Notes under the pieces: generated by a model | Seen by the model: only the letters and a program-made list of their open reading frames with translations | What the model was told of the DNA's origin: nothing | Databases searched by the model: none | Program-made: the position numbers and the translations under genes | From: Fidelibacterota bacterium | GTDB taxonomy: Bacteria; Fidelibacterota; Marinisomatia; Marinisomatales; TCS55 | Direction: 5' to 3' | Assembly: GCA_018674655.1 (NCBI GenBank) | Contig: JABGZQ010000064.1 | Location: 9,019 to 73,018, forward strand | DNA: 64,000 nucleotides | Shown here: one piece after another, positions 17,210 to 53,985 of the stretch | How positions within the stretch are numbered: the first letter of the stretch is position 1 | Layout: each line of letters opens with the position of its first letter

Positions 17210-17280
17210 TGGGGCGTCGTCTAACGGTAGGACACCTGGTTTTGGTCCAGGCAGTCGGGGTTCGAGTCCCTGCGCCCCAG
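17210..17280 (+). tRNA. tRNA-Gln (anticodon UUG)
   Basis: Hand-folded cloverleaf. Acceptor TGGGGCG/CGCCCCA; D stem GTCT/GGAC; anticodon stem CCTGG/CCAGG with loop TTTTGGT (anticodon TTG); T arm CGGGG-TTCGAGT-CCCTG; discriminator G. CCA is not encoded. Confidence 0.9.
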
Positions 17281-17290
17281 CAGAAAGAAT

Positions 17291-24895: not shown

Positions 24896-27118
24896 ATGTT
24901 TGCTGATGTTTCATTTCCGATCTCCAGTTATCAGACTTTTTCCTATGAAATTCCTGATTCATTATTGAAAAAAGTAAAAGTAGGCGTGCGTGTAAACGCC
25001 CCCCTTGGCCGACGAAAAGTTCAAGGGATTGTAGTTGGTTTACAGAAAACATTAAAATATAAAGGGCGCATTCGCCCAATTGAATCTTTGGTTGATGACC
25101 AACCAGTTTTGGATCATCATTTATGGAAACTGATTAACTGGCTTGCAGATTATTATAATACACCGGTTGGAATTGCTGCGAAAACGGCACTTCCAACCAG
25201 TTTGTCCACTCGATATAAACCCAAAACTCAAATGCTGGTAAAATCAACAGGTCAAAAATCTGACTTACCCAAAAAGGCAAAAGCACAAATTGCCGTTTTA
25301 AATCACCTGAAGACACAGAATGGTTTTATAGCGGTTCAATCGTTGGGTGAATTTGCCTCAAACCCGGTTGATGTGTGTAGAAAGCTATCTGGAAAAAATC
25401 TAATTGAAATCAAGCTTGAACCCATCATTCCTGACTTAACGGGGTTTTCCTTTAAACCAATGTTTAAAAAAATTCGATTTTCCGGCTATCAAAAAAGTGC
25501 AGTGGATAAAATTTGCACCTCTTTAGATAAAAATGAATTCACCCCATTTTTGCTTCACGGTGTGACGGGGAGTGGAAAAACAGAAATATATATTGAGGCA
25601 GCGCGCCATGCAATTAGTCAAGGTAAAACCGTCATCATGTTGCTTCCGGAAATATCTTTAACACCACAAATTGCTGGCCGATTTAGATCTGTATTTGGTG
25701 ATGAAGTGGCTATGTGGCATTCAAAGTTAAATCAATCAGCAAGGGCTTGGACTTGGAAACGGATTTGTGCAGGTGATTATAAAGTAGTGATTGGTGCCCG
25801 CTCTGCCATATTCTCCCCATTGAAAAATTTGGGATTAATAGTGGTAGATGAGGAGCAGGAGAATTCTTACAAACAAGAATCGCCAGCGCCAAGATACCAT
25901 GCAAGAGATGTTTCGCTGATGCGAGGCAAAATCCACAATGCAACCGTTGTGTTGGCAAGCGCCACCCCCAGCCTAGAATCTTACTACAACTATATTCAAG
26001 GTAAATTCGAATATATTCATCTTCCAGAGCGGTATGGCGGTGCAAAATATCCCCATGTTCATGTGGTTGATATGATGAAAGAATCAAAAGAAACAGATAT
26101 GTATGGATCTATTTTTTCAAGGATTCTGATAGAAAAGATCTCCGATAGAATTGGGAAAAAAGAACAAGTGATTTTGCTTCATAATCGTCGAGGATTTGCA
26201 CCTGTATTGAAATGTGCGGATTGTGGCGAAATTGAAACATGTCCTCATTGCCAGGTATCCTTAACATATCACAAATCAGGGCAATTTCTTCAGTGCCATT
26301 TTTGTAATCACCTCAAGAAACAATTGCCCACCCAGTGTAGGGAATGTCATAGCCTTACCTTGCAACTGGCGGGAGTAGGTACGCAAAAAGTTGAAGAAGA
26401 ATTAATGAACCTATTCCCCGAAGCAATTGTTGAACGTCTTGATGTTGATACAACCCGGTCTGGAAAGAATATTACAGAAGTATTACAAAGATTTTCCGAT
26501 GGTGATATCAACATATTACTGGGAACACAAATGATTGCTAAAGGATTAGATTTTTCGAATGCAACGCTTGTGGGGATTATCAATGGCGATACCGGGCTCC
26601 ATCTTCCTGATTTTAGAGCAGGAGAACGCGTTTTTCAGCTAATATATCAAGCAGCAGGGCGTTCTGGTCGCGGTCGAATCCCAGGCGAAGTTGTGGTCCA
26701 AACCTATAGTCCGGATCATTCTGTGATTAAATGTGCTACCCAGCTAGATTTGAAAAAATATTATAACATCTGTCTTGATGAGCGACAGACTTTAGATTAT
26801 CCTCCGTTTAGCTGGATGGTCCGATTGGAAATTTCTGGAGAAAATAAAAGAGCGGTAGAGAATGCATCGAAAATAATGGGGCGAAAGTTTAATCATCTAC
26901 CAAAAGGAATGATATTGTTGGGCCCCGCATATTGTTACCGAGAAAGACTGCGAAATAAATACCGGATGCAAATTGTGATTAAATCTAAAAAGACTTCAGA
27001 TCCAAATGGCAATAAATTGCACCATCACTTTAAAAAAGTCATTAACAATAAAGATTCATCCAACTTACCTGGGAATATTCGTCTAATTGTAGACGTAAAC
27101 CCAGTTTCTCTATTATGA
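24896..27118 (+). CDS. priA: primosomal replication-restart helicase PriA
   Basis: 740 aa. Walker A GVTGSGKTE, DEEQE box, Cys-rich zinc insertion CADCGEIETCPHC...CHFCNH...CRECHS, QAAGRSGRG. Confidence 0.93.
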   Translation: MFADVSFPISSYQTFSYEIPDSLLKKVKVGVRVNAPLGRRKVQGIVVGLQKTLKYKGRIRPIESLVDDQPVLDHHLWKLINWLADYYNTPVGIAAKTALPTSLSTRYKPKTQMLVKSTGQKSDLPKKAKAQIAVLNHLKTQNGFIAVQSLGEFASNPVDVCRKLSGKNLIEIKLEPIIPDLTGFSFKPMFKKIRFSGYQKSAVDKICTSLDKNEFTPFLLHGVTGSGKTEIYIEAARHAISQGKTVIMLLPEISLTPQIAGRFRSVFGDEVAMWHSKLNQSARAWTWKRICAGDYKVVIGARSAIFSPLKNLGLIVVDEEQENSYKQESPAPRYHARDVSLMRGKIHNATVVLASATPSLESYYNYIQGKFEYIHLPERYGGAKYPHVHVVDMMKESKETDMYGSIFSRILIEKISDRIGKKEQVILLHNRRGFAPVLKCADCGEIETCPHCQVSLTYHKSGQFLQCHFCNHLKKQLPTQCRECHSLTLQLAGVGTQKVEEELMNLFPEAIVERLDVDTTRSGKNITEVLQRFSDGDINILLGTQMIAKGLDFSNATLVGIINGDTGLHLPDFRAGERVFQLIYQAAGRSGRGRIPGEVVVQTYSPDHSVIKCATQLDLKKYYNICLDERQTLDYPPFSWMVRLEISGENKRAVENASKIMGRKFNHLPKGMILLGPAYCYRERLRNKYRMQIVIKSKKTSDPNGNKLHHHFKKVINNKDSSNLPGNIRLIVDVNPVSLL

Positions 27119-28011
27119 TTCGATTCGTTTTTATTATTAATATTTTCGCGAGCGGCATTTTCGCACAATCATCGTTCTCAGGGCTTAGTAGCTGGACTTT
27201 TAGCCAAACTGTTGGTTTTGCTGGTGGCGGTTATTTGATTACGTCAAATAATGGTTTCCGTAATGGCGCGATGCTGCCAGATTCATCCCGCCATTTTAAA
27301 ATAGATTTGGTGAAATATCCTGCAGGTATCAACGGTCAATCCATTATGACTAATGGGAAAATAAATGGACATCGACTTGGATTAAAAATAAACAGACTTA
27401 ATTATGGCATTTTTGAAGGAAAAAATATGGACAATCAACCAACAGAAGATTATTCTGCGGGCGATATTCATATTCAGATGGCATACGCCAAACCATCAAA
27501 TTCCGGCCGTTTAGTCTTTGGGGTTAATGCGGGCTTTTTTTTGAGTCAAATTGAGCATACAAATGCCAAAGCTTTTACCCTGTCCCCCGGGTTTGTTTTT
27601 AATTCTCGGATTGGAAGCATGGGTCTTACTCTTGAAAATACAGGCGTGGTTTTTGATTCATATACAGAAATCAAAGAAAAACTGCCCTCATTATTAGTTA
27701 CATCAATTGTGAGTAAAATACCAAAAATTCCAATAGAATTTGAAATAGACTATCTTCGAGCACTAAATATTGAATCCCATTTAATTACATTCTCAGGCCT
27801 TATCCATTTAAAAAACGGACTTATAATAAAAGGGGGTGCTTCAACAAAAAAATCAGATCAAATGACCAATATTTCATTTATTAATGATTTATTTACGGAT
27901 ATGGGCGTAGGTGTATCATATGAGATAGAGGATATATTTATTGATATAAACTCATACACTTATGGTCCTGGAGGCTTAGTATTTGCGTTCGGGATTTCCG
28001 TTAGATATTAA
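27115..28011 (+). CDS. hypothetical secreted protein, probable outer-membrane beta-barrel
   Basis: 298 aa with signal peptide MIRFVFIINIFASGIFAQ. It shows alternating hydrophobic beta-strand patterns and a C-terminal FAFGISVRY (aromatic terminus typical of OMPs). The ATGA start overlaps the priA stop. Confidence 0.5.
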   Translation: MIRFVFIINIFASGIFAQSSFSGLSSWTFSQTVGFAGGGYLITSNNGFRNGAMLPDSSRHFKIDLVKYPAGINGQSIMTNGKINGHRLGLKINRLNYGIFEGKNMDNQPTEDYSAGDIHIQMAYAKPSNSGRLVFGVNAGFFLSQIEHTNAKAFTLSPGFVFNSRIGSMGLTLENTGVVFDSYTEIKEKLPSLLVTSIVSKIPKIPIEFEIDYLRALNIESHLITFSGLIHLKNGLIIKGGASTKKSDQMTNISFINDLFTDMGVGVSYEIEDIFIDINSYTYGPGGLVFAFGISVRY

Positions 28012-36980: not shown

Positions 36981-38321
36981 ATGAAATTCCTACCAAAAAC
37001 AATATTCTTTCTTATTATTTTATCTGCTTGTTCAGAAAAAGTGCCGAGTGAATCAGAAACATGGAATGTAATTCAGGAGGAAATTCTGACACCCCAATGT
37101 GTGAACTGCCATTCTCAAGGAACCGCAATCGCCAAACAGTCTGGATTGATATTAAGCGACGGATTCTCATATGGTGCAATGGTTGGTGTGCCACCAAAAA
37201 ATATTGCAGCAAAAAATGATAATTTGGTTATCGTTAGCAACGAAGGTGGTTTAAAAGGTCTGGGTAAAAGTTTTTTATGGGAAAAAATTAATGCCCACGA
37301 TAGAGAACATTATTTAAGTGATCATCAAAACTATGGGCAGATGATGCCCCCAGGGGATAATTTTTTAAATGATGGGCAATTACAATTTATTAGAGCTTGG
37401 ATAGAAGCGGGTGCACCCGAGTTAGGAATTGTCGCAGATGAAAAATTATTATTGGATTCAAACAAGTATAAACCTCCACCCTTTCATCCTTTGGATCCAC
37501 CGGAAAAAGGTTTTCAGGTGCATCTCGGCCCGTTTGAAGTCCCCCCAAATTTTGAGAGAGAGTTTTTTCATTATACAGATACAAGGTTGAATGAAGATGT
37601 TTTTGTGAATCGAATCCAAATTGAGATGAGACCTGGAAGTCATCATTTCATTCTTTACTCATTTGAGCCAGATACAAAATCTGGCAGGTTACCTGATTTT
37701 GGTGTTAACAGGGAGTTGCGAGATCCAGATGGTGCGATCCATACCTCAACACTAATAACCATGTTAAACCACCAGTTTTTTACTGGAACCCAGTGGCCCC
37801 GTATGGATTATAAATTACCCGAAGGTGTTGCTTTGCGCTTAACCTCAAAGTTTGGTTTGGATCAAAATGCGCACTATGTTAATAGATCCGATTCAGTTAT
37901 TGTGGGAGAGGTTTATTCAAATATCCATACCGTTGATAAATCACAAGTTGAACATATTGCAGAATTATTTGCTTTCTCTAATAGGGACTTTAGCTTGCCA
38001 CCCAAAAAAGTAACCACCGTTGAGCGAACATATCGCGTGAATAAAGATATGTATATTGGTCAAATGTTTTCTCATGCTCATGAATTAATGACCGAATTTA
38101 TTGTCAAAGTCTCAGGGGGCTCTCGAGATGGAGAGGTGGTATACTGGACTGACGATTGGCAACATCCACCTATTTTAGAGTATGACCCATTAATTGAATT
38201 AAAATCTGGGGAAGGGTTATCACTTATTGCGACATTTGATAATTCAACAGATCAAACGGTTAAATTTGGGTTTCTATCAACAGATGAAATGATGATTGTT
38301 TTTGGTTGGTATTTTGAATAA
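36981..38321 (+). CDS. lipoprotein fusing a c-type cytochrome domain to a PHM/DBH-like copper monooxygenase-like domain
   Basis: 446 aa. Lipobox IILSAC and CxxCH (C40VNCH44). The ligand pattern is HH(221-222), H298, HxH(365/367), M437, with STDEMM close to the PHM SSDEM motif. Confidence 0.6.
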   Translation: MKFLPKTIFFLIILSACSEKVPSESETWNVIQEEILTPQCVNCHSQGTAIAKQSGLILSDGFSYGAMVGVPPKNIAAKNDNLVIVSNEGGLKGLGKSFLWEKINAHDREHYLSDHQNYGQMMPPGDNFLNDGQLQFIRAWIEAGAPELGIVADEKLLLDSNKYKPPPFHPLDPPEKGFQVHLGPFEVPPNFEREFFHYTDTRLNEDVFVNRIQIEMRPGSHHFILYSFEPDTKSGRLPDFGVNRELRDPDGAIHTSTLITMLNHQFFTGTQWPRMDYKLPEGVALRLTSKFGLDQNAHYVNRSDSVIVGEVYSNIHTVDKSQVEHIAELFAFSNRDFSLPPKKVTTVERTYRVNKDMYIGQMFSHAHELMTEFIVKVSGGSRDGEVVYWTDDWQHPPILEYDPLIELKSGEGLSLIATFDNSTDQTVKFGFLSTDEMMIVFGWYFE

Positions 38322-42140: not shown

Positions 42141-42539
42141 TTGATTACATATTATTCAACCCTAAAGTTATTTCATTTAATTGGAATGGCTGCATGGTTT
42201 GGTACCGCATTGGTTGTTTCAATTGTTTGGTTCAGAAAAAATATTGGGGACAAGGAATTGATTCTTGATGTTATTACTAAGGTGGAGATGCCCGCATCAT
42301 TTTTTATCCCGATGACCGGTGTGTTAATGATGATTGAGCAACCATTATGGCTTCAGGTTGGATGGCTTCACTTAAAAATACTTATTGGGCTTGCAGCGGT
42401 TGTATTTAGTCATTTCTCTCGAGCAAAACTAATTCATGCAGATATGAAAGATGAATATGTTCGGCAAAAATTCAGCCTATTTCGAAATCTATGTCTCTTA
42501 ATGTTATTAATTGTTATAATCATTGTAGGTTACAAATAA
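42141..42539 (+). CDS. hypothetical 4-TM membrane protein
   Basis: 132 aa with a TTG start and four hydrophobic helices (LKLFHLIGMAAWFGTALVVSIVWF ...). No confident family assignment. Confidence 0.45.
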   Translation: MITYYSTLKLFHLIGMAAWFGTALVVSIVWFRKNIGDKELILDVITKVEMPASFFIPMTGVLMMIEQPLWLQVGWLHLKILIGLAAVVFSHFSRAKLIHADMKDEYVRQKFSLFRNLCLLMLLIVIIIVGYK

Positions 42540-42557
42540 TATACCGATTCGAATTAC

Positions 42558-43139
42558 ATGCCTAACATAGAACGCCCACATGAATATTCTTCACTAAAGT
42601 CGATTGATGTAAACTCAGAAAAAATTGAAGGAAAATTAATTAGAAAAATTCTCCCAGATTTTAAAATTCTGAATTTTAAAAAAAGTGATGATAGTCCAGA
42701 ACGAATCAATAATAGATCAGATGAAATAATTCTTTACTCATTCTTTTCTGAGTGGTGCCTCAATTGTCACTATGATGCGGATACATTAAAGAAATTGTTT
42801 TCAATTTATAATAAAAAAGGATTAATGATGGTATTAACGATGGATTATTCACATAGAAATCTATCAACTTCGTTTATTGAAAAGTATGGGTTGAATATAC
42901 CATTCACATTTGGAGAGTTAGATGAAAAGAATGAACAGAAAAGAAACGCTACTCAACTTTATCGACTTAGAAAGACTTTGGGCGATGAGCGTGATTGGGG
43001 TACCCCGTTTCATATCCTAATGAAAAATGGAAGTAAAAATATAGTTGGTATTATCATGGGTGAAATTATTGAATCAGAATTAATACCATATTTAAATGAA
43101 GCACTTTCTACCAGTTGGCCTATTTCTAATAAAACTTAA
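42558..43139 (+). CDS. thioredoxin-fold protein (TlpA/redoxin-like, WCxxC)
   Basis: 193 aa. ILYSFFSEWCLNCHYDADTLKKL fits the beta1-CxxC-alpha1 thioredoxin pattern. No obvious signal peptide. Confidence 0.55.
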   Translation: MPNIERPHEYSSLKSIDVNSEKIEGKLIRKILPDFKILNFKKSDDSPERINNRSDEIILYSFFSEWCLNCHYDADTLKKLFSIYNKKGLMMVLTMDYSHRNLSTSFIEKYGLNIPFTFGELDEKNEQKRNATQLYRLRKTLGDERDWGTPFHILMKNGSKNIVGIIMGEIIESELIPYLNEALSTSWPISNKT

Positions 43140-44588: not shown

Positions 44589-44924
44589 TCAGCCAGAAAG
44601 GGTTATGTCGTAAATATCTTCAAACGTTTTGGTCTTTATCATACGAATTGCATCCCACGTCAGCTTTGAGCATACTTTGGCACATATCTGACAACCAATA
44701 CATTCATCATGGCGAACTTGAACGGGTGGAATTGGAATTCCATATTTTTCAATGGGAGTTGGTTCAATACAATCAACGGGGCAAAATGGTACACAAACCT
44801 GACATCCGGTACAATTATCCTCGTCCACCACAGCAATAAGTTTCGGTTTCTTTTTCTTAAAGTTTACCTTTTCTGCTGGGTCGGGTACAGTTTTATAGTG
44901 ATCGTAGTTAAATTTATTTGCCAT
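44589..44924 (-). CDS. 2x[4Fe-4S] dicluster ferredoxin-domain protein
   Basis: 111 aa. CTGCQVCVPFCP and CIGCQICAKVCS cluster motifs follow a Lys-rich N-terminus. Confidence 0.8.
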   Translation of the reverse strand: MANKFNYDHYKTVPDPAEKVNFKKKKPKLIAVVDEDNCTGCQVCVPFCPVDCIEPTPIEKYGIPIPPVQVRHDECIGCQICAKVCSKLTWDAIRMIKTKTFEDIYDITLSG

Positions 44925-45052: not shown

Positions 45053-45346
45053 ATGGCCTACATTATTGCTGAACCATGTGTCGGAACTTGCGATACAGCT
45101 TGCGTGGAAGTTTGTCCCGTTGATTGCATTCAACCCACAAAAGACTCGTGGGAAGAAAAAGGATATGACGAAAACAATTTAGACGGTAAACTACTTTACA
45201 TTGATCCCGAAGAATGTATTGATTGTGGGGCATGCGAACCCGAGTGCCCAGTTGAAGCTATTTTTGAGGAAAGCGAAGTCCCTGAAGAATGGAATAAATA
45301 CATCAAAATTAACTATGATTACTTCGGTCGCGAATATTCAGGTTAA
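45053..45346 (+). CDS. fdxA: ferredoxin (FdxA-like, 7Fe-type pattern)
   Basis: 97 aa. YIIAEPCVGTCDTACVEVCPVDCI and CIDCGACEPECPVEAIF. AGGAG lies 6 nt upstream of the ATG. Confidence 0.85.
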   Translation: MAYIIAEPCVGTCDTACVEVCPVDCIQPTKDSWEEKGYDENNLDGKLLYIDPEECIDCGACEPECPVEAIFEESEVPEEWNKYIKINYDYFGREYSG

Positions 45347-45369: not shown

Positions 45370-45404
45370 AAACGGCTGTTGGTTTCTCAACAGCCGTTTT
45401 TTTT
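45370..45404 (+). terminator. rho-independent terminator after fdxA, 9 nt before the mrp start
   Basis: AAACGGCTGTTG (45370-81) pairs with CAACAGCCGTTT (45388-99) across a 6-nt loop. The T-run continues to 45404. Confidence 0.8.
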
Positions 45405-45412
45405 GGTTATCT

Positions 45413-46531
45413 ATGAATAAAAATAAAATATTAGAATTATTAAAAACGGTTAATTACCCAGGTTTTAGTCGAGATATTGTTTCCTTTGGAATGGTGGATA
45501 ATGTATCTATAGATGGAGATACCATCAATGTTGAATTAAAAATCACCACACAAAATGAAGATAAAAAAACGTCTGTTATTAATGAAGTAAATAAAGCATT
45601 AGAAAATACAAATTCGTTTACCAATATCAAGATTACTATTCAGGAAGGCGCCCCGTCTTCTCCACAACCTCAAGAGCCCAAATCCCAAGAGCCGCCGCCG
45701 GCTGCACCTTTAGATGGGGTAAAACATATTATTGCAGTTGCGAGTGGAAAAGGTGGCGTAGGCAAATCAACGGTCGCAGCAAATATCGCACTTGGATTAA
45801 AAAATTCTGGCCACTCAGTTGGTCTTTTAGATTTAGATATCTATGGCCCATCCCTTCCTATTATTCTGGGAATCCAAGAACAGCCAGAATTAACGCAAGA
45901 TCGGAAGCTTGTTCCTTTAGACCACTTAGGAATGAAAATAATGAGTTTCGGATTTATAAGCGGAAACCAAACACCTATAATTTGGCGTGGACCTTTGGTA
46001 GCCCGAATGACCGAACAGTTTTTTCGTGATGTTGAATGGGGAGAATTAGACTATTTAATCCTTGATCTACCTCCAGGGACTGGAGATGTACACCTTACAT
46101 TAACACAAAAATTAAAAGTCGATGGTGTAATCATTGTAACCACACCGCAAGATATTGCCTTAGCCGATGTTAGTAAAGGTGCGGATATGTTTAAAAAAGT
46201 TCACACGCCAATCTTGGGTGTTGTTGAAAATATGTCCGGTCTATATATTGAGGGTAAGGCTGATAAAGGAAGTCAGGTAACGATCGAAGGTCAAGAATTA
46301 ATATTGGATTCAGATGGCCAATTTTCTCTTCGAATTGATATGTTTAAACGAGGCGGTGGGCAATCTGAAAGTGATCGATTGAATGTACCATTGTTAGGTG
46401 AAATTCCCTTAACGCAGGAGATTATGGAAGCCACAGATGCGGGTGAGCCAATTATCAGTAAAACCCCCAAAGCGCATGTATCTAAAATATATCAATCCAT
46501 TACTGAAAAGGTAATGAATGCACTGAACTAA
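45413..46531 (+). CDS. mrp: Mrp/NBP35/ApbC-family P-loop ATPase, completely cysteine-free
   Basis: 372 aa. N-terminal DUF59-like domain (LLKTVNYPGFSRDIVSFGMV), deviant Walker A AVASGKGGVGKST, DLPPGTGD, VVENMS. The translation contains no Cys residue, and the usual CxxC position is replaced by an insert. Confidence 0.8.
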   Translation: MNKNKILELLKTVNYPGFSRDIVSFGMVDNVSIDGDTINVELKITTQNEDKKTSVINEVNKALENTNSFTNIKITIQEGAPSSPQPQEPKSQEPPPAAPLDGVKHIIAVASGKGGVGKSTVAANIALGLKNSGHSVGLLDLDIYGPSLPIILGIQEQPELTQDRKLVPLDHLGMKIMSFGFISGNQTPIIWRGPLVARMTEQFFRDVEWGELDYLILDLPPGTGDVHLTLTQKLKVDGVIIVTTPQDIALADVSKGADMFKKVHTPILGVVENMSGLYIEGKADKGSQVTIEGQELILDSDGQFSLRIDMFKRGGGQSESDRLNVPLLGEIPLTQEIMEATDAGEPIISKTPKAHVSKIYQSITEKVMNALN

Positions 46532-47322
46532 TGTTCAATTATTTTACTGATATTATTGTCCTTATATTTCTTGGCTTTGCTATTGTATATCCATTTTTTC
46601 TTTGGATCGCTCCCCTTAAAAAAATAGACATTGGTTTTTATCGTTTTAATCTTGGCATGTGTTGTATTGTTGGGGCCATAGGTATTGCCTCATTTCAATT
46701 TCTTGACTCAAGTTTTATTTCTAAGATATATGTATGGGTCTGGTTTGGTGCATTCTTGATAATTACAGCACTATATTGGAACTCAGATCACATAAACAAT
46801 ATGGTGATTTCATCCCTTGCTTTATTTGGCACAGGTACGATGATAGGAGTTGTGGCCGATATAATTTTTGTCAAAATTTTTCCTGGTACCTGGTTTATTG
46901 TTCTATTGGGATCGGCTATTACCGCAGGGGTTTTTTTTGCTATGATATTGGGTCATTGGTATTTAAATGTTGTTGCATTGCCCATCAACTTGCTAAAAAA
47001 GGCCACCATAAGCCTATGGGTTTTATTGACAATTCGATTATTTTGGGATTTGGTTTATCTTTCAACTAATACGTTTACAAACAATTTCGGGATATCACGT
47101 AGCTTATGGTCATTCATGCTCCAATTTGATGGATTCCTCTTAGCGGTTGCTTTTTTTATGGGGAATATTGTACCTATCGTTTTAAACTTTTTTATCTGGC
47201 GCACTTTAACCCTTCAGGCAACTCAAAGTGCCACTGGACTGTTATATGTCTCAATCGTCTCAATTCTATTTGGAGATTTACTTTTTAAATACTATCTGAT
47301 TCAATATGGATTCTTAGTATGA
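46531..47322 (+). CDS. hypothetical polytopic membrane protein (about 8 TM)
   Basis: 263 aa and highly hydrophobic, containing GHWYLN and ATGLLYVS segments. The start overlaps the mrp stop by 1 nt (TAATG). Confidence 0.55.
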   Translation: MFNYFTDIIVLIFLGFAIVYPFFLWIAPLKKIDIGFYRFNLGMCCIVGAIGIASFQFLDSSFISKIYVWVWFGAFLIITALYWNSDHINNMVISSLALFGTGTMIGVVADIIFVKIFPGTWFIVLLGSAITAGVFFAMILGHWYLNVVALPINLLKKATISLWVLLTIRLFWDLVYLSTNTFTNNFGISRSLWSFMLQFDGFLLAVAFFMGNIVPIVLNFFIWRTLTLQATQSATGLLYVSIVSILFGDLLFKYYLIQYGFLV

Positions 47323-47705
47323 GTCAACTAGATTGTGAAGTTTGTAATAAAACAAAAACATTTTTAGAAGCGGTTAAATGTGATAAATGTCAGAAATCAA
47401 ATTTATTTGACTATAGCTTAAGTTTTTCTGAGTGCCCTGTTTGTGGGTGTAATCACCTTTATCGAAAAAAAGATTTTAATCAAGCAATTGGATGTATTAT
47501 TATTTTAATTGGTGCTTTGTTAGTCCCATGGACATATGGTGTTAGTTTGATTGTTCTATCCATTATTGATTTATTATTATATCGTCGAATCAAGGATTCT
47601 GTTGAGTGTTATAAATGTAAAACAGAATATAAAAATATGGCTGTACCAGAAGAGATAAGCCCATTTGACCATCACACAGCGGAACTATATGAATCAAGGG
47701 AATAG
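47319..47705 (+). CDS. membrane-anchored double zinc-ribbon protein (four CxxC pairs flanking a TM hairpin)
   Basis: 128 aa. C6xxC9, C21xxC24, C39xxC42, then a TM hairpin (about residues 57-88), then C97xxC100. The ATGA start overlaps the upstream gene. Confidence 0.55.
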   Translation: MSQLDCEVCNKTKTFLEAVKCDKCQKSNLFDYSLSFSECPVCGCNHLYRKKDFNQAIGCIIILIGALLVPWTYGVSLIVLSIIDLLLYRRIKDSVECYKCKTEYKNMAVPEEISPFDHHTAELYESRE

Positions 47706-52575: not shown

Positions 52576-53985
52576 ATGGGTATTATAAAATATCAGCGTA
52601 CAATCGGAAAAGAAACATCCTGTGTTGGTATAGGTTTACATACTGGTGTTGAGTCAACAATCACATTTAAACCTGCGTCCGAGGATTTTGGTATTCGCTT
52701 TAAACGTATGGATGTGGATGGCGGGCCAGAAATACGTGCAGATATTGACCATGTTGTTGATATCTCTCGGGGCACAACAATTGAAGAAAATGGCGTAAGG
52801 ATCCACACGGTTGAACATGCGTTGGCGGCATGCGTTGGCATTGGTCTGGATAATGTTTTAATTGAATTAACAGAAAAAGAACCTCCAGTGATGGATGGTA
52901 GTTCAATTGATTTTGTAGAAGCATTGCTTAAAAGCGGTATCGTGAAACAGGATGCACCTAGAAATTATCTTCATATTGATGAAGCCGTGGGTTACTCTGA
53001 TTCAGAACGAGGTGTTGATATTCATATTATGCCATCAGATCAGTTTCGAATCACGTTTATGATAGATTATAAATATCAATCACTGGGAACCCAATTCACT
53101 ACAATGGATCAATTAGAGCAAAACTTTGCAAAAGATATTGCACCAGCGAGGACTTTTTGTTTTTTAAGTGAGGTTGAAACATTAAAGAAAAACGGTCTTA
53201 TTCAAGGGGGAAATCTGGAGAATGCTGTTGTAATTGTTGATAAAGAAATTGATCAGGCCGAAGCAGATAACCTCCGAGGGTTGTTTGGCATTAAGCAAGA
53301 AATTAGCTTGGGTGCGAATGGGATATTAAATGGGAAAAAATTGAGATTCGAAAATGAACCAGTCCGCCACAAAGCATTAGATTTAATTGGCGATTTAGCA
53401 TTATTGGGAATGCCATTACAAGGCCACATTATAGCATCAAAAAGCGGGCATGCTGCAAATGTCGAACTTGTAAAGCGAATCAAAAAAACGTATGAGAAGA
53501 AAATACTTCGCCAACGATTTCGAAAAAGCAATTCAACAGATATTTTATTTGATATTAATTCAATTTTAAGTCTCCTTCCCCACCGATATCCATTTGTTTT
53601 GGTTGACAGAATTATTGATATCACACCCGGGGAAAAACTAACTGCCATTAAAAATGTAACCATTAATGAACCGTTTTTTCAGGGGCACTTTCCTAATCAG
53701 CCTGTCATGCCTGGTGTCTTGGTTCTAGAAGCCATGGCGCAGGCAGGTTCTTTTTTAGTTCTCAACACCGTTGATAATCCCATGAAAAAGAATATGTTTT
53801 TCTCTTCATTAACCGAAGCAAAATTCCGGCATCCAATTGTTCCTGGCGATCAACTACGCCTTGAGATGGAATTAGAAAAGTTTAAGATGGGGACGGCTTT
53901 CCTTGTAGGGAAAGGTTATGTCGGCGATAAACTGGTGGCAGAAGGCAGACTAAAAGCTACAGTGGTGGATCGGGCAGGAGCCTGA
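52576..53985 (+). CDS. lpxC-fabZ: bifunctional UDP-3-O-acyl-GlcNAc deacetylase / 3-hydroxyacyl-ACP dehydratase (LpxC-FabZ fusion)
   Basis: 469 aa. The LpxC part shows QRTI, GIGLHTG, TVEHALAA, HKALDLIGDLAL, SGHAAN. The FabZ part shows LPHRYPFVLVDRI, NEPFFQGHFP..PVMPGVL.LEAMAQ. Confidence 0.93.
   Translation: MGIIKYQRTIGKETSCVGIGLHTGVESTITFKPASEDFGIRFKRMDVDGGPEIRADIDHVVDISRGTTIEENGVRIHTVEHALAACVGIGLDNVLIELTEKEPPVMDGSSIDFVEALLKSGIVKQDAPRNYLHIDEAVGYSDSERGVDIHIMPSDQFRITFMIDYKYQSLGTQFTTMDQLEQNFAKDIAPARTFCFLSEVETLKKNGLIQGGNLENAVVIVDKEIDQAEADNLRGLFGIKQEISLGANGILNGKKLRFENEPVRHKALDLIGDLALLGMPLQGHIIASKSGHAANVELVKRIKKTYEKKILRQRFRKSNSTDILFDINSILSLLPHRYPFVLVDRIIDITPGEKLTAIKNVTINEPFFQGHFPNQPVMPGVLVLEAMAQAGSFLVLNTVDNPMKKNMFFSSLTEAKFRHPIVPGDQLRLEMELEKFKMGTAFLVGKGYVGDKLVAEGRLKATVVDRAGA

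Follow-up and report, generated by a model that had tools for sequence, protein, structure and literature searches.

A cysteine-free Mrp-family ATPase beside an uncharacterised membrane protein and zinc-ribbon gene pair in the Marinimicrobia

A 64,000-nt stretch of contig JABGZQ010000064.1 from a Fidelibacterota bacterium (the window, always taken at its full length) was analysed for a gene, mrp, that encodes an Mrp/ApbC/NBP35-family P-loop ATPase without a single cysteine, and for the two genes that follow it, one encoding a transmembrane (TM) protein with eight helices and one encoding a small protein with zinc-ribbon cysteines around a TM hairpin (the TM and Zn genes; TM-Zn for the pair). 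All three open reading frames (ORFs) of a preliminary description of this DNA are present. The named homologues of all three proteins belong to the Marinimicrobia (SAR406, equivalent to the Fidelibacterota or Neomarinimicrobiota), and the ATPase is a variant of a known family located beside an uncharacterised gene pair. The features of the locus are the following.

45053..45346, forward strand: fdxA-type ferredoxin gene (context), located directly 5' of mrp in nearly all Marinimicrobia loci
45370..45399, forward strand: intrinsic-terminator-like hairpin between fdxA and mrp, with a 13-bp stem and then a T-run
45413..46531, forward strand: mrp, Mrp/ApbC/NBP35-family P-loop ATPase of 372 amino acids (aa), cysteine-free (PF10609, PF01883)
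45413..45646, forward strand: N-terminal DUF59/FeS_assembly_P-like domain of Mrp, aa 1-78
45734..45772, forward strand: deviant Walker A motif of Mrp, AVASGKGGVGKST, aa 108-120 including the signature lysine, read from the translation
46238..46345, forward strand: cysteine-free beta-rich insert of Mrp, aa 276-311, in place of the post-ENMS CxxC loop
46531..47322, forward strand: 8-TM membrane protein of 263 aa, unnamed family
47319..47705, forward strand: zinc-ribbon/TM-hairpin protein of 128 aa
47793..48542, forward strand: uppS (context), separated from the Zn gene by an 87-nt gap and located directly after mrp in a clade that lacks TM-Zn

The ATPase was assigned to its family based on PF10609 (303.7 bits, Pfam cut-off 27.1), and its N-terminal domain based on PF01883 (34.8 bits, E = 2e-8 over aa 4-66). 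The N-terminal domain forms an alpha/beta unit in the AlphaFold2 (AF2) model and lacks the cysteine of some DUF59 proteins. An alignment of 26 Mrp sequences (alignment A2) shows no variation at the Walker A, switch and Walker B residues; this holds for the deviant Walker A as a whole and for the motifs GKGGVGKST (aa 112-120), DLDIYGPS (aa 140-147) and DLPPGTGD (aa 218-225). VVENMS is located at aa 270-275. The best sequence and fold matches are ApbC/Mrp of Escherichia coli and Salmonella (8zkc) and the Nbp35/Cfd1/Ind1 proteins, all of which share with the window protein the DUF59-like N-domain, PF10609, the deviant Walker A, the switch motifs and ENMS. The protein can be aligned to ApbC 8zkc, Cfd1 and AF2382, and its AF2 model (predicted local distance difference test score, pLDDT, of 80) displays an ApbC/Cfd1/HypB-like fold apart from the insert, with a high block-mean pLDDT for the last helix (aa 355-371). 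It scores below the cut-offs of the NCBIfam models for ApbC (NF008669, 265.6 bits vs. 348) and MrpORP (NF041136, 272.2 bits vs. 450) and of the MinD model TIGR01968 (66.3 bits vs. 212.9).

Unlike ApbC, the window protein contains no CxxC for the bridging [4Fe-4S] cluster and carries a beta insert of 34-36 aa instead. The translation after VVENMS reads GLYIEGKADKGSQVTIEGQELILDSDGQFSLRIDMF and then KRGGG. In the comparison with E. coli ApbC, residues 100-275 and 310-368 were aligned and residues 276-309 remained unaligned, exactly at the CxxC loop. The preliminary description of a complete Mrp/NBP35/ApbC architecture with no cysteine, and of a cysteine-free segment of about 35 aa at the site of the CxxC, is thus confirmed by the domain matches, the motif positions and this alignment. 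Two strands are modelled within the insert (aa 276-282 and 303-309) at medium confidence (pLDDT 63-71). Orthologues with 45-aa inserts match positions 2-43 of the 82 positions of PF13620 (CarboxypepD_reg) with E = 9e-7 to 0.02; the best score is 29.6 bits, below the cut-off of 32.3, and covers half of the domain only. PF13620 gave no match to the window protein's own, shorter insert. On this comparison the window insert appears to be a trimmed form of a 45-aa segment that resembles the first half of the CarboxypepD_reg (transthyretin-like) beta-sandwich. In one further locus (L070:708-1637) the Mrp orthologue ends partway through the insert (ENMAGFVVSGFDEGTPIVV...) and is missing its normal C-terminal part, possibly because that metagenome-assembled genome has a frameshift or deletion here.

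The mrp gene is under strong purifying selection. In comparisons with close orthologues, the ratio of nonsynonymous to synonymous substitution rates (dN/dS) comes to 0.09 for the whole gene, with 0.05 for the ATPase core and 0.16-0.18 for the insert. The possibility raised in the preliminary description, that an error in the sequence or a frameshift hides a CxxC, was rejected: over the insert, both alternative reading frames contain many stop codons, and approximately 70 orthologues carry the insert. The presence of the same kind of insert in these orthologues and the purifying selection indicate that mrp is neither a sequencing error nor a pseudogene.

A total of 80 species-level genome loci were collected via the TM protein, and 75 of these contain mrp, TM and Zn in this order. 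Approximately 70 syntenic Mrp orthologues have, at this same site, an insert of 32-45 aa that is free of cysteine; those with the main insert type, the window protein among them, group in a single large clade. The motif ENM[ST]xFxCPHC was kept at the same gene position in five loci (L068, L069, L071, L095 and L096); three of these (L068, L069 and L071), together with 113 out of the 120 best matches to L068, have this motif and exactly two cysteines per protein. A state with CPDT, in which one cysteine is left and no insert is present, was found in two loci (L073 and L078), and a distinct cysteine-free insert of 39 aa in another group (L080, P0379-81, P0388 and P0390). A neighbour-joining tree of Mrp places this second insert type among the CxxC types, which indicates no fewer than three separate losses of the CxxC. 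The first gene is the orthologous housekeeping Mrp/ApbC of the Marinimicrobia, and the CxxC was lost within one orthologue. A tblastn search of plasmids for Mrp returned mostly proteobacterial and haloarchaeal copies, and a scan of viral contigs returned two loci. Mrp proteins of the Bacteroidota and Firmicutes may commonly lack the CxxC.

The absence of cysteine as such is less informative. The genome is cysteine-poor (0.79%), 19 out of 60 ORFs in the window are cysteine-free, and the chance of zero cysteines in 372 aa is approximately 0.05. As the CxxC orthologues contain two cysteines only, the real observation is the loss of two functional cysteines and not the cysteine-freeness of the protein.

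The three genes are closely spaced, with a 1-nt overlap (TAATG) at the mrp/TM junction and a 4-nt overlap (ATGA) at the TM/Zn junction. The hairpin downstream of fdxA marks the start of a transcription unit that begins with mrp, and mrp and TM-Zn are co-transcribed on this evidence. No terminator was detected between the Zn gene and uppS, and the unit appears to continue into uppS. Overlaps were found at 13 out of 51 same-strand junctions of the window; they are thus a habit of this genome and not a special mark of the trio. On a larger scale, the block fdxA-mrp-TM-Zn-uppS-bamA-skp-lpxD is syntenic across the Marinimicrobia, in which the TM-Zn pair sits between mrp and uppS within a long conserved envelope-biogenesis operon.

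The AF2 model of the 263-aa protein (pLDDT 84) consists of eight long TM helices. An exhaustive HMMER search recovered a family of 1005 cluster representatives at 50% identity, with the universal motifs GHWYL (aa 141-145) and TQSATGxLY (aa 231-239; in the wider family [ST]QSATGxLY...G[DE]). By the positive-inside rule, the two motifs are probably located where TM5 and TM8 end on the cytoplasmic side. Neither the protein nor its distant homologues matched a Pfam or NCBIfam family, and a profile search of the PDB with the TM alignment gave no match even at E = 10. A Foldseek search with the TM model returned weak matches to CydB, ActC/ActF and PsrC (best E = 0.087, TM-scores 0.42-0.51). The quinone-interacting subunits NrfD/PsrC, ActC/ActF and CydB share a layout of two four-helix bundles with the 8-TM protein and are its best fold matches, but with Foldseek E values of 0.087 or more, TM-scores of 0.4-0.5 and no sequence similarity they are to be taken as a lead only.

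The 128-aa protein contains cysteines at positions 6/9, 21/24, 39/42 and 97/100, plus C44 and C59. C6/C9 and C21/C24 make up an N-terminal ribbon, and C39/C42 and C97/C100 (CPxC...CYxC) a second ribbon that is split around the TM hairpin. The C-terminus carries the motif FDHHTAELYE (FD(HH)xAExYE in the family). All eight CxxC cysteines are invariant in the alignment of the protein (A3), and the C39/C42/C97/C100 quartet, a KDFNQ motif and the TM hairpin are kept in distant lineages. The cysteine spacing is that expected of a generic zinc ribbon with two CxxC pairs per site, and the universal quartet would staple the base of the TM hairpin in the manner of a structural zinc site. The zinc-binding domain probably faces the cytoplasm. 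No Pfam or NCBIfam family was matched at E <= 0.01, hence no HypA family (PF01155) either, and from its sequence the protein was judged to lack an N-terminal MHE nickel motif. Shortened proteins of approximately 105 aa, from which the entire N-terminal CxxC...CxxC ribbon is missing, occur in several Marinimicrobia clades (among others L016-L018, L022, L024, L026, L036 and L038; P0164-P0189); these retain the second ribbon, split by the TM hairpin, as well as the FDHHxAExYE tail.

The two downstream genes encode an 8-TM protein and a protein with four CxxC pairs and show the overlaps given in the preliminary description, and neither protein belongs to a described family: in addition to the Pfam and NCBIfam searches, in which distant homologues of both proteins likewise matched no family, PADLOC gave no defence-family match for TM or Zn and a generic P-loop match only for Mrp. 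The TM-Zn pair is a genuine two-gene membrane module that reaches beyond the Marinimicrobia and is widespread, unnamed and without a family model. In distant high-GC genomes the TM homologue is followed by a clearly homologous zinc-ribbon gene and no Mrp. TM-Zn pairs without Mrp include L061, L062, L063 and L077; no Mrp was found beside TM-Zn outside the Marinimicrobia (L061-63, L077 and L081-L090), and 0 out of 80 metagenome loci found by a distant-homologue profile contained Mrp. An apparent natural TM-Zn fusion was seen in P0327 (428 aa), the N-terminal part of which looks frame-shifted or of low quality.

The neighbours of the pair outside the Marinimicrobia were recorded. In three related genomes of 3.8-4.0 Mb (L061:514-4433, L062 and L077) TM-Zn divergently adjoins a COX2, COX3, COX1 operon, and downstream in these loci are genes for a 2x[4Fe-4S] ferredoxin and for a protein that contains CarboxypepD_reg; COX2 is also present at L151. 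A large set of metagenome contigs (L104-L179, e.g., L130:47-2354 and L156:1832-4828) carries a CofH/MqnC-type radical S-adenosylmethionine (SAM) gene directly 5' of a distant TM homologue, in L130 ending 11 nt before the TM gene. The nadA gene (quinolinate synthase) and the sodA gene (Fe/Mn superoxide dismutase) are often located between the radical SAM gene and TM. Homologues of a 111-aa 2x[4Fe-4S] ferredoxin of the window are encoded directly beside TM-Zn, upstream of TM, in three loci (L126, L138 and L171). These neighbours hint at a redox, quinone or iron-sulfur (Fe-S) theme, on anecdotal grounds, and it is the CofH/MqnC-type radical SAM, cytochrome oxidase and ferredoxin genes near TM-Zn in other lineages that accompany the lead to quinone-interacting subunits.

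The 111-aa ferredoxin itself is encoded on the reverse strand of the window (44589-44924), 1.6 kb upstream of the TM-Zn pair. Further upstream (42141-43139) lie genes for a 132-aa HemJ/UPF0093/CopD-like membrane protein (below cut-offs) and then a 193-aa thioredoxin-fold ResA/DsbE-like protein, and many Marinimicrobia loci have both genes in synteny 5' of the mrp block. Downstream, a single ORF of 469 aa (52576-53985) has an orthologue 3' of lpxD in L091 that carries both PF03331 (LpxC) and PF07977 (FabA/FabZ). These two domains point to an LpxC-FabZ fusion; such a fusion is typical of the Fibrobacterota, Chlorobiota and Bacteroidota (FCB) group. Two ORFs (27115-28011, 298 aa; 36981-38321, 446 aa) matched no Pfam family at E <= 1e-5. 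The region 7768-35401 encodes ordinary housekeeping functions (UvrA, a transketolase-like protein, H+-pyrophosphatase, sulfatase, PriA, the 1490-aa large subunit of glutamate synthase and AmtB), and the sole RNA gene found in the window is a tRNA-Gln (17210-17281).

Known proteins of the family offer partial precedents for an Mrp without its CxxC. SalA of Bacillus subtilis probably lacks a CxxC. Unlike the window protein, it is without a beta insert or partner membrane genes, and it comes from a different phylum. SalA is an Mrp-family ATPase to which a non-Fe-S role is assigned, acting as a transcriptional regulator and as an activator of the tyrosine kinase PtkA (PMC5035731). Chloroplast HCF101 is a protein of the Mrp/NBP35 class with a DUF59 domain and no canonical CxxC that binds a [4Fe-4S] cluster through other cysteines (PMC2805927); the window protein resembles it in lacking the canonical CxxC, but has no cysteine at all. 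HCF101 and SalA were the sole partial precedents for a cysteine-less bacterial Mrp in the literature searched. A different kind of parallel is given by HypB/HypA of Thermococcus kodakarensis (3vx3, 5aun and 5auo), in which an Mrp/MinD-type ATPase is paired with a small CxxC...CxxC zinc protein and which is a top fold match (E ~1e-15). HypB/HypA is the best mechanistic counterpart to an ATPase that is paired with a zinc-ribbon partner. HypA is soluble, has the MHE nickel site and belongs to PF01155, whereas the 128-aa protein contains a TM hairpin and does not carry a HypA signature. Among the ORFs of the window that received an annotation, none was recognised as a hydrogenase gene.

The reading of the locus to which we give a probability of about 0.5 is that of a cluster-less derivative of the housekeeping Mrp, which would function as an ATP-dependent, cysteine-independent nucleotide-switch adaptor with a beta clasp or docking element and would be encoded beside an independent membrane pair. 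The housekeeping protein has lost the two cysteines that normally hold the bridging [4Fe-4S] cluster between the subunits, with the CxxC loop swapped for a short beta-structured insert, and would no longer carry a canonical cluster. In the Mrp/ApbC family the CxxC loops of both subunits meet on the dimer axis, so the two half-sandwich inserts would probably meet there too, at the former cluster site, and could provide a protein clasp or docking surface. The intact nucleotide-binding and switch motifs and the strong purifying selection argue that Mrp is probably still an ATP-dependent dimerising switch. It would then be a nucleotide-dependent adaptor in the style of MinD, ParA or Get3 and not a cluster carrier, and TM-Zn would be a separate module, co-transcribed with mrp without demonstrable dependence. 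A non-Fe-S, MinD/ParA-like role of the ATPase, one of two hypotheses put forward in the preliminary description, would be compatible with all the data.

Several observations weigh against this reading. The clasp is deduced from a monomer model of medium confidence. The mrp, TM and Zn genes form one transcription unit after a strong terminator-like hairpin. All of the CxxC losses, at least three, took place in lineages that have TM-Zn, as a functional dependence would predict, and the clade without TM-Zn retained CPHC in 5 out of 5 sampled members. Finally, TM-Zn is found elsewhere beside Fe-S proteins (ferredoxin, NadA and the radical SAM enzyme), which fits an Fe-S theme.

The clade without TM-Zn is large (94 tips in the Mrp tree). 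Its sampled members encode uppS directly after mrp, with a gap of 42-235 nt and no TM or Zn gene; loci with this arrangement, found via CxxC-type Mrp, are L091-L094 and L097-L099. As judged within 10-kb loci, the absence or deletion of TM-Zn in this clade is clean.

Most of these observations are also those on which a true three-part system would rest, in which ATP-dependent docking would bring the Mrp dimer, devoid of a cluster, to the cytoplasmic face of the TM/Zn pair as a motor or targeting factor, and the pair would have made the CxxC dispensable. The three genes are co-directional and overlapping, TM-Zn is present at every cysteine-less Mrp locus examined (100%), no locus among those compared combines a lost CxxC with the absence of TM-Zn, the TM motifs and the Zn domain are both predicted to be cytoplasmic, and the Mrp/MinD-type HypB ATPase with its zinc-finger partner HypA (5aun/5auo, among the best fold matches) provides a precedent. 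However, the TM-Zn-negative lineage is a single clade with 31% of the tree length, and three losses would all fall outside of it with a chance of 0.69^3 = ~0.33; the tie between CxxC loss and TM-Zn presence is suggestive and not significant. In addition, five loci from approximately three Mrp clades combine a canonical CPHC Mrp with the same TM-Zn pair, which shows that the pair neither requires nor immediately causes the cysteine loss, and TM-Zn is never located beside Mrp outside the phylum. A mirror-tree analysis gave partial correlations of 0.29 (Mrp-TM) and 0.28 (Mrp-Zn) against 0.1-0.6 for controls and hence no excess co-evolution, but it gave -0.01 for TM-Zn itself and so is without power. 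Since the whole block from fdxA to lpxD is equally syntenic and overlaps are common, which accounts for the adjacency, the stoichiometric three-part module that the preliminary description derived from the tight coupling is not established. The interpretation given there is partly supported: TM-Zn accompanies every cysteine-less Mrp examined and the gene order is conserved in the large majority of the TM-found loci, but the pair also accompanies CPHC-type Mrp and does not adjoin Mrp in the loci from outside the Marinimicrobia. The Mrp-TM-Zn link is thus suggestive, and a three-part system is considered unlikely.

More doubtful still is the idea that Mrp-family ATPases have a membrane receptor in the TM/Zn pair, and that this pair, in the Marinimicrobia, took over the role of holding the metal or cluster, such that the CxxC became dispensable and the insert serves as the docking element. 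If true, it would explain why the CxxC was lost at least three times only where TM-Zn is present, and the pair would represent a membrane-anchored station for Fe-S or metal delivery of a kind not described before, which might serve quinone-linked respiratory or ferredoxin-dependent membrane proteins.

The other hypothesis of the preliminary description, that the zinc ribbon supplies cysteine ligands in trans, would keep Mrp as a carrier with an Fe-S cluster or metal at the interface between the cysteine-free ATPase and the CxxC pairs of its partner. The four CxxC pairs are predicted to lie on the cytoplasmic side and the neighbourhood is rich in Fe-S proteins (fdxA and the second ferredoxin upstream). 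Against this, the same eight cysteines occur beside CxxC-type Mrp, beside cysteine-less Mrp and without an adjacent Mrp, and this constancy whatever the cysteine status of Mrp leaves ligation in trans unsupported. No new cysteine was gained in lineages with cysteine-less Mrp, three of these lineages (L018, L024 and L038) lost the N-terminal ribbon entirely, and the universal quartet at the base of the TM hairpin resembles a structural zinc site; this explanation is regarded as very improbable.

Marginally less credible again is an Mrp that carries a cluster alone, via His, Asp, Glu or external thiols of the glutathione type. The DUF59 domain and the rest of the architecture are fully kept and fdxA is adjacent in all lineages, but the protein is without any cysteine, a variable insert that shows no conserved His/Asp/Cys pattern took the place of the loop on the axis, and there was no precedent in the literature searched. 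An artefact or decaying gene, with an error that hides the CxxC or a pseudogene, has nothing in its favour except the unusual sequence and can be dismissed in view of the stops in the other frames, the insert in ~70 independent assemblies, dN/dS values of 0.05-0.09 and the invariant ATPase motifs.

The CxxC-bound cluster is regarded as essential to the Mrp family, yet one orthologous gene exists with a CxxC, with half a CxxC and with two different cysteine-free inserts, and its ATPase core is strongly constrained throughout. In vivo, the CxxC ligands of the bridging [4Fe-4S] cluster have been described as essential, and it is still said to be unclear what ATP hydrolysis does in the Mrp/ApbC/Nbp35/Ind1 proteins (PMC6345978). 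The graded series of CPHC, CPDT and two inserts separates the ATPase function from cluster binding and may offer a handle on the role of the Mrp ATPase beyond clusters. Beside it, the TM/zinc-ribbon pair represents a sizeable and widely distributed family that has so far carried neither a name nor a family model.

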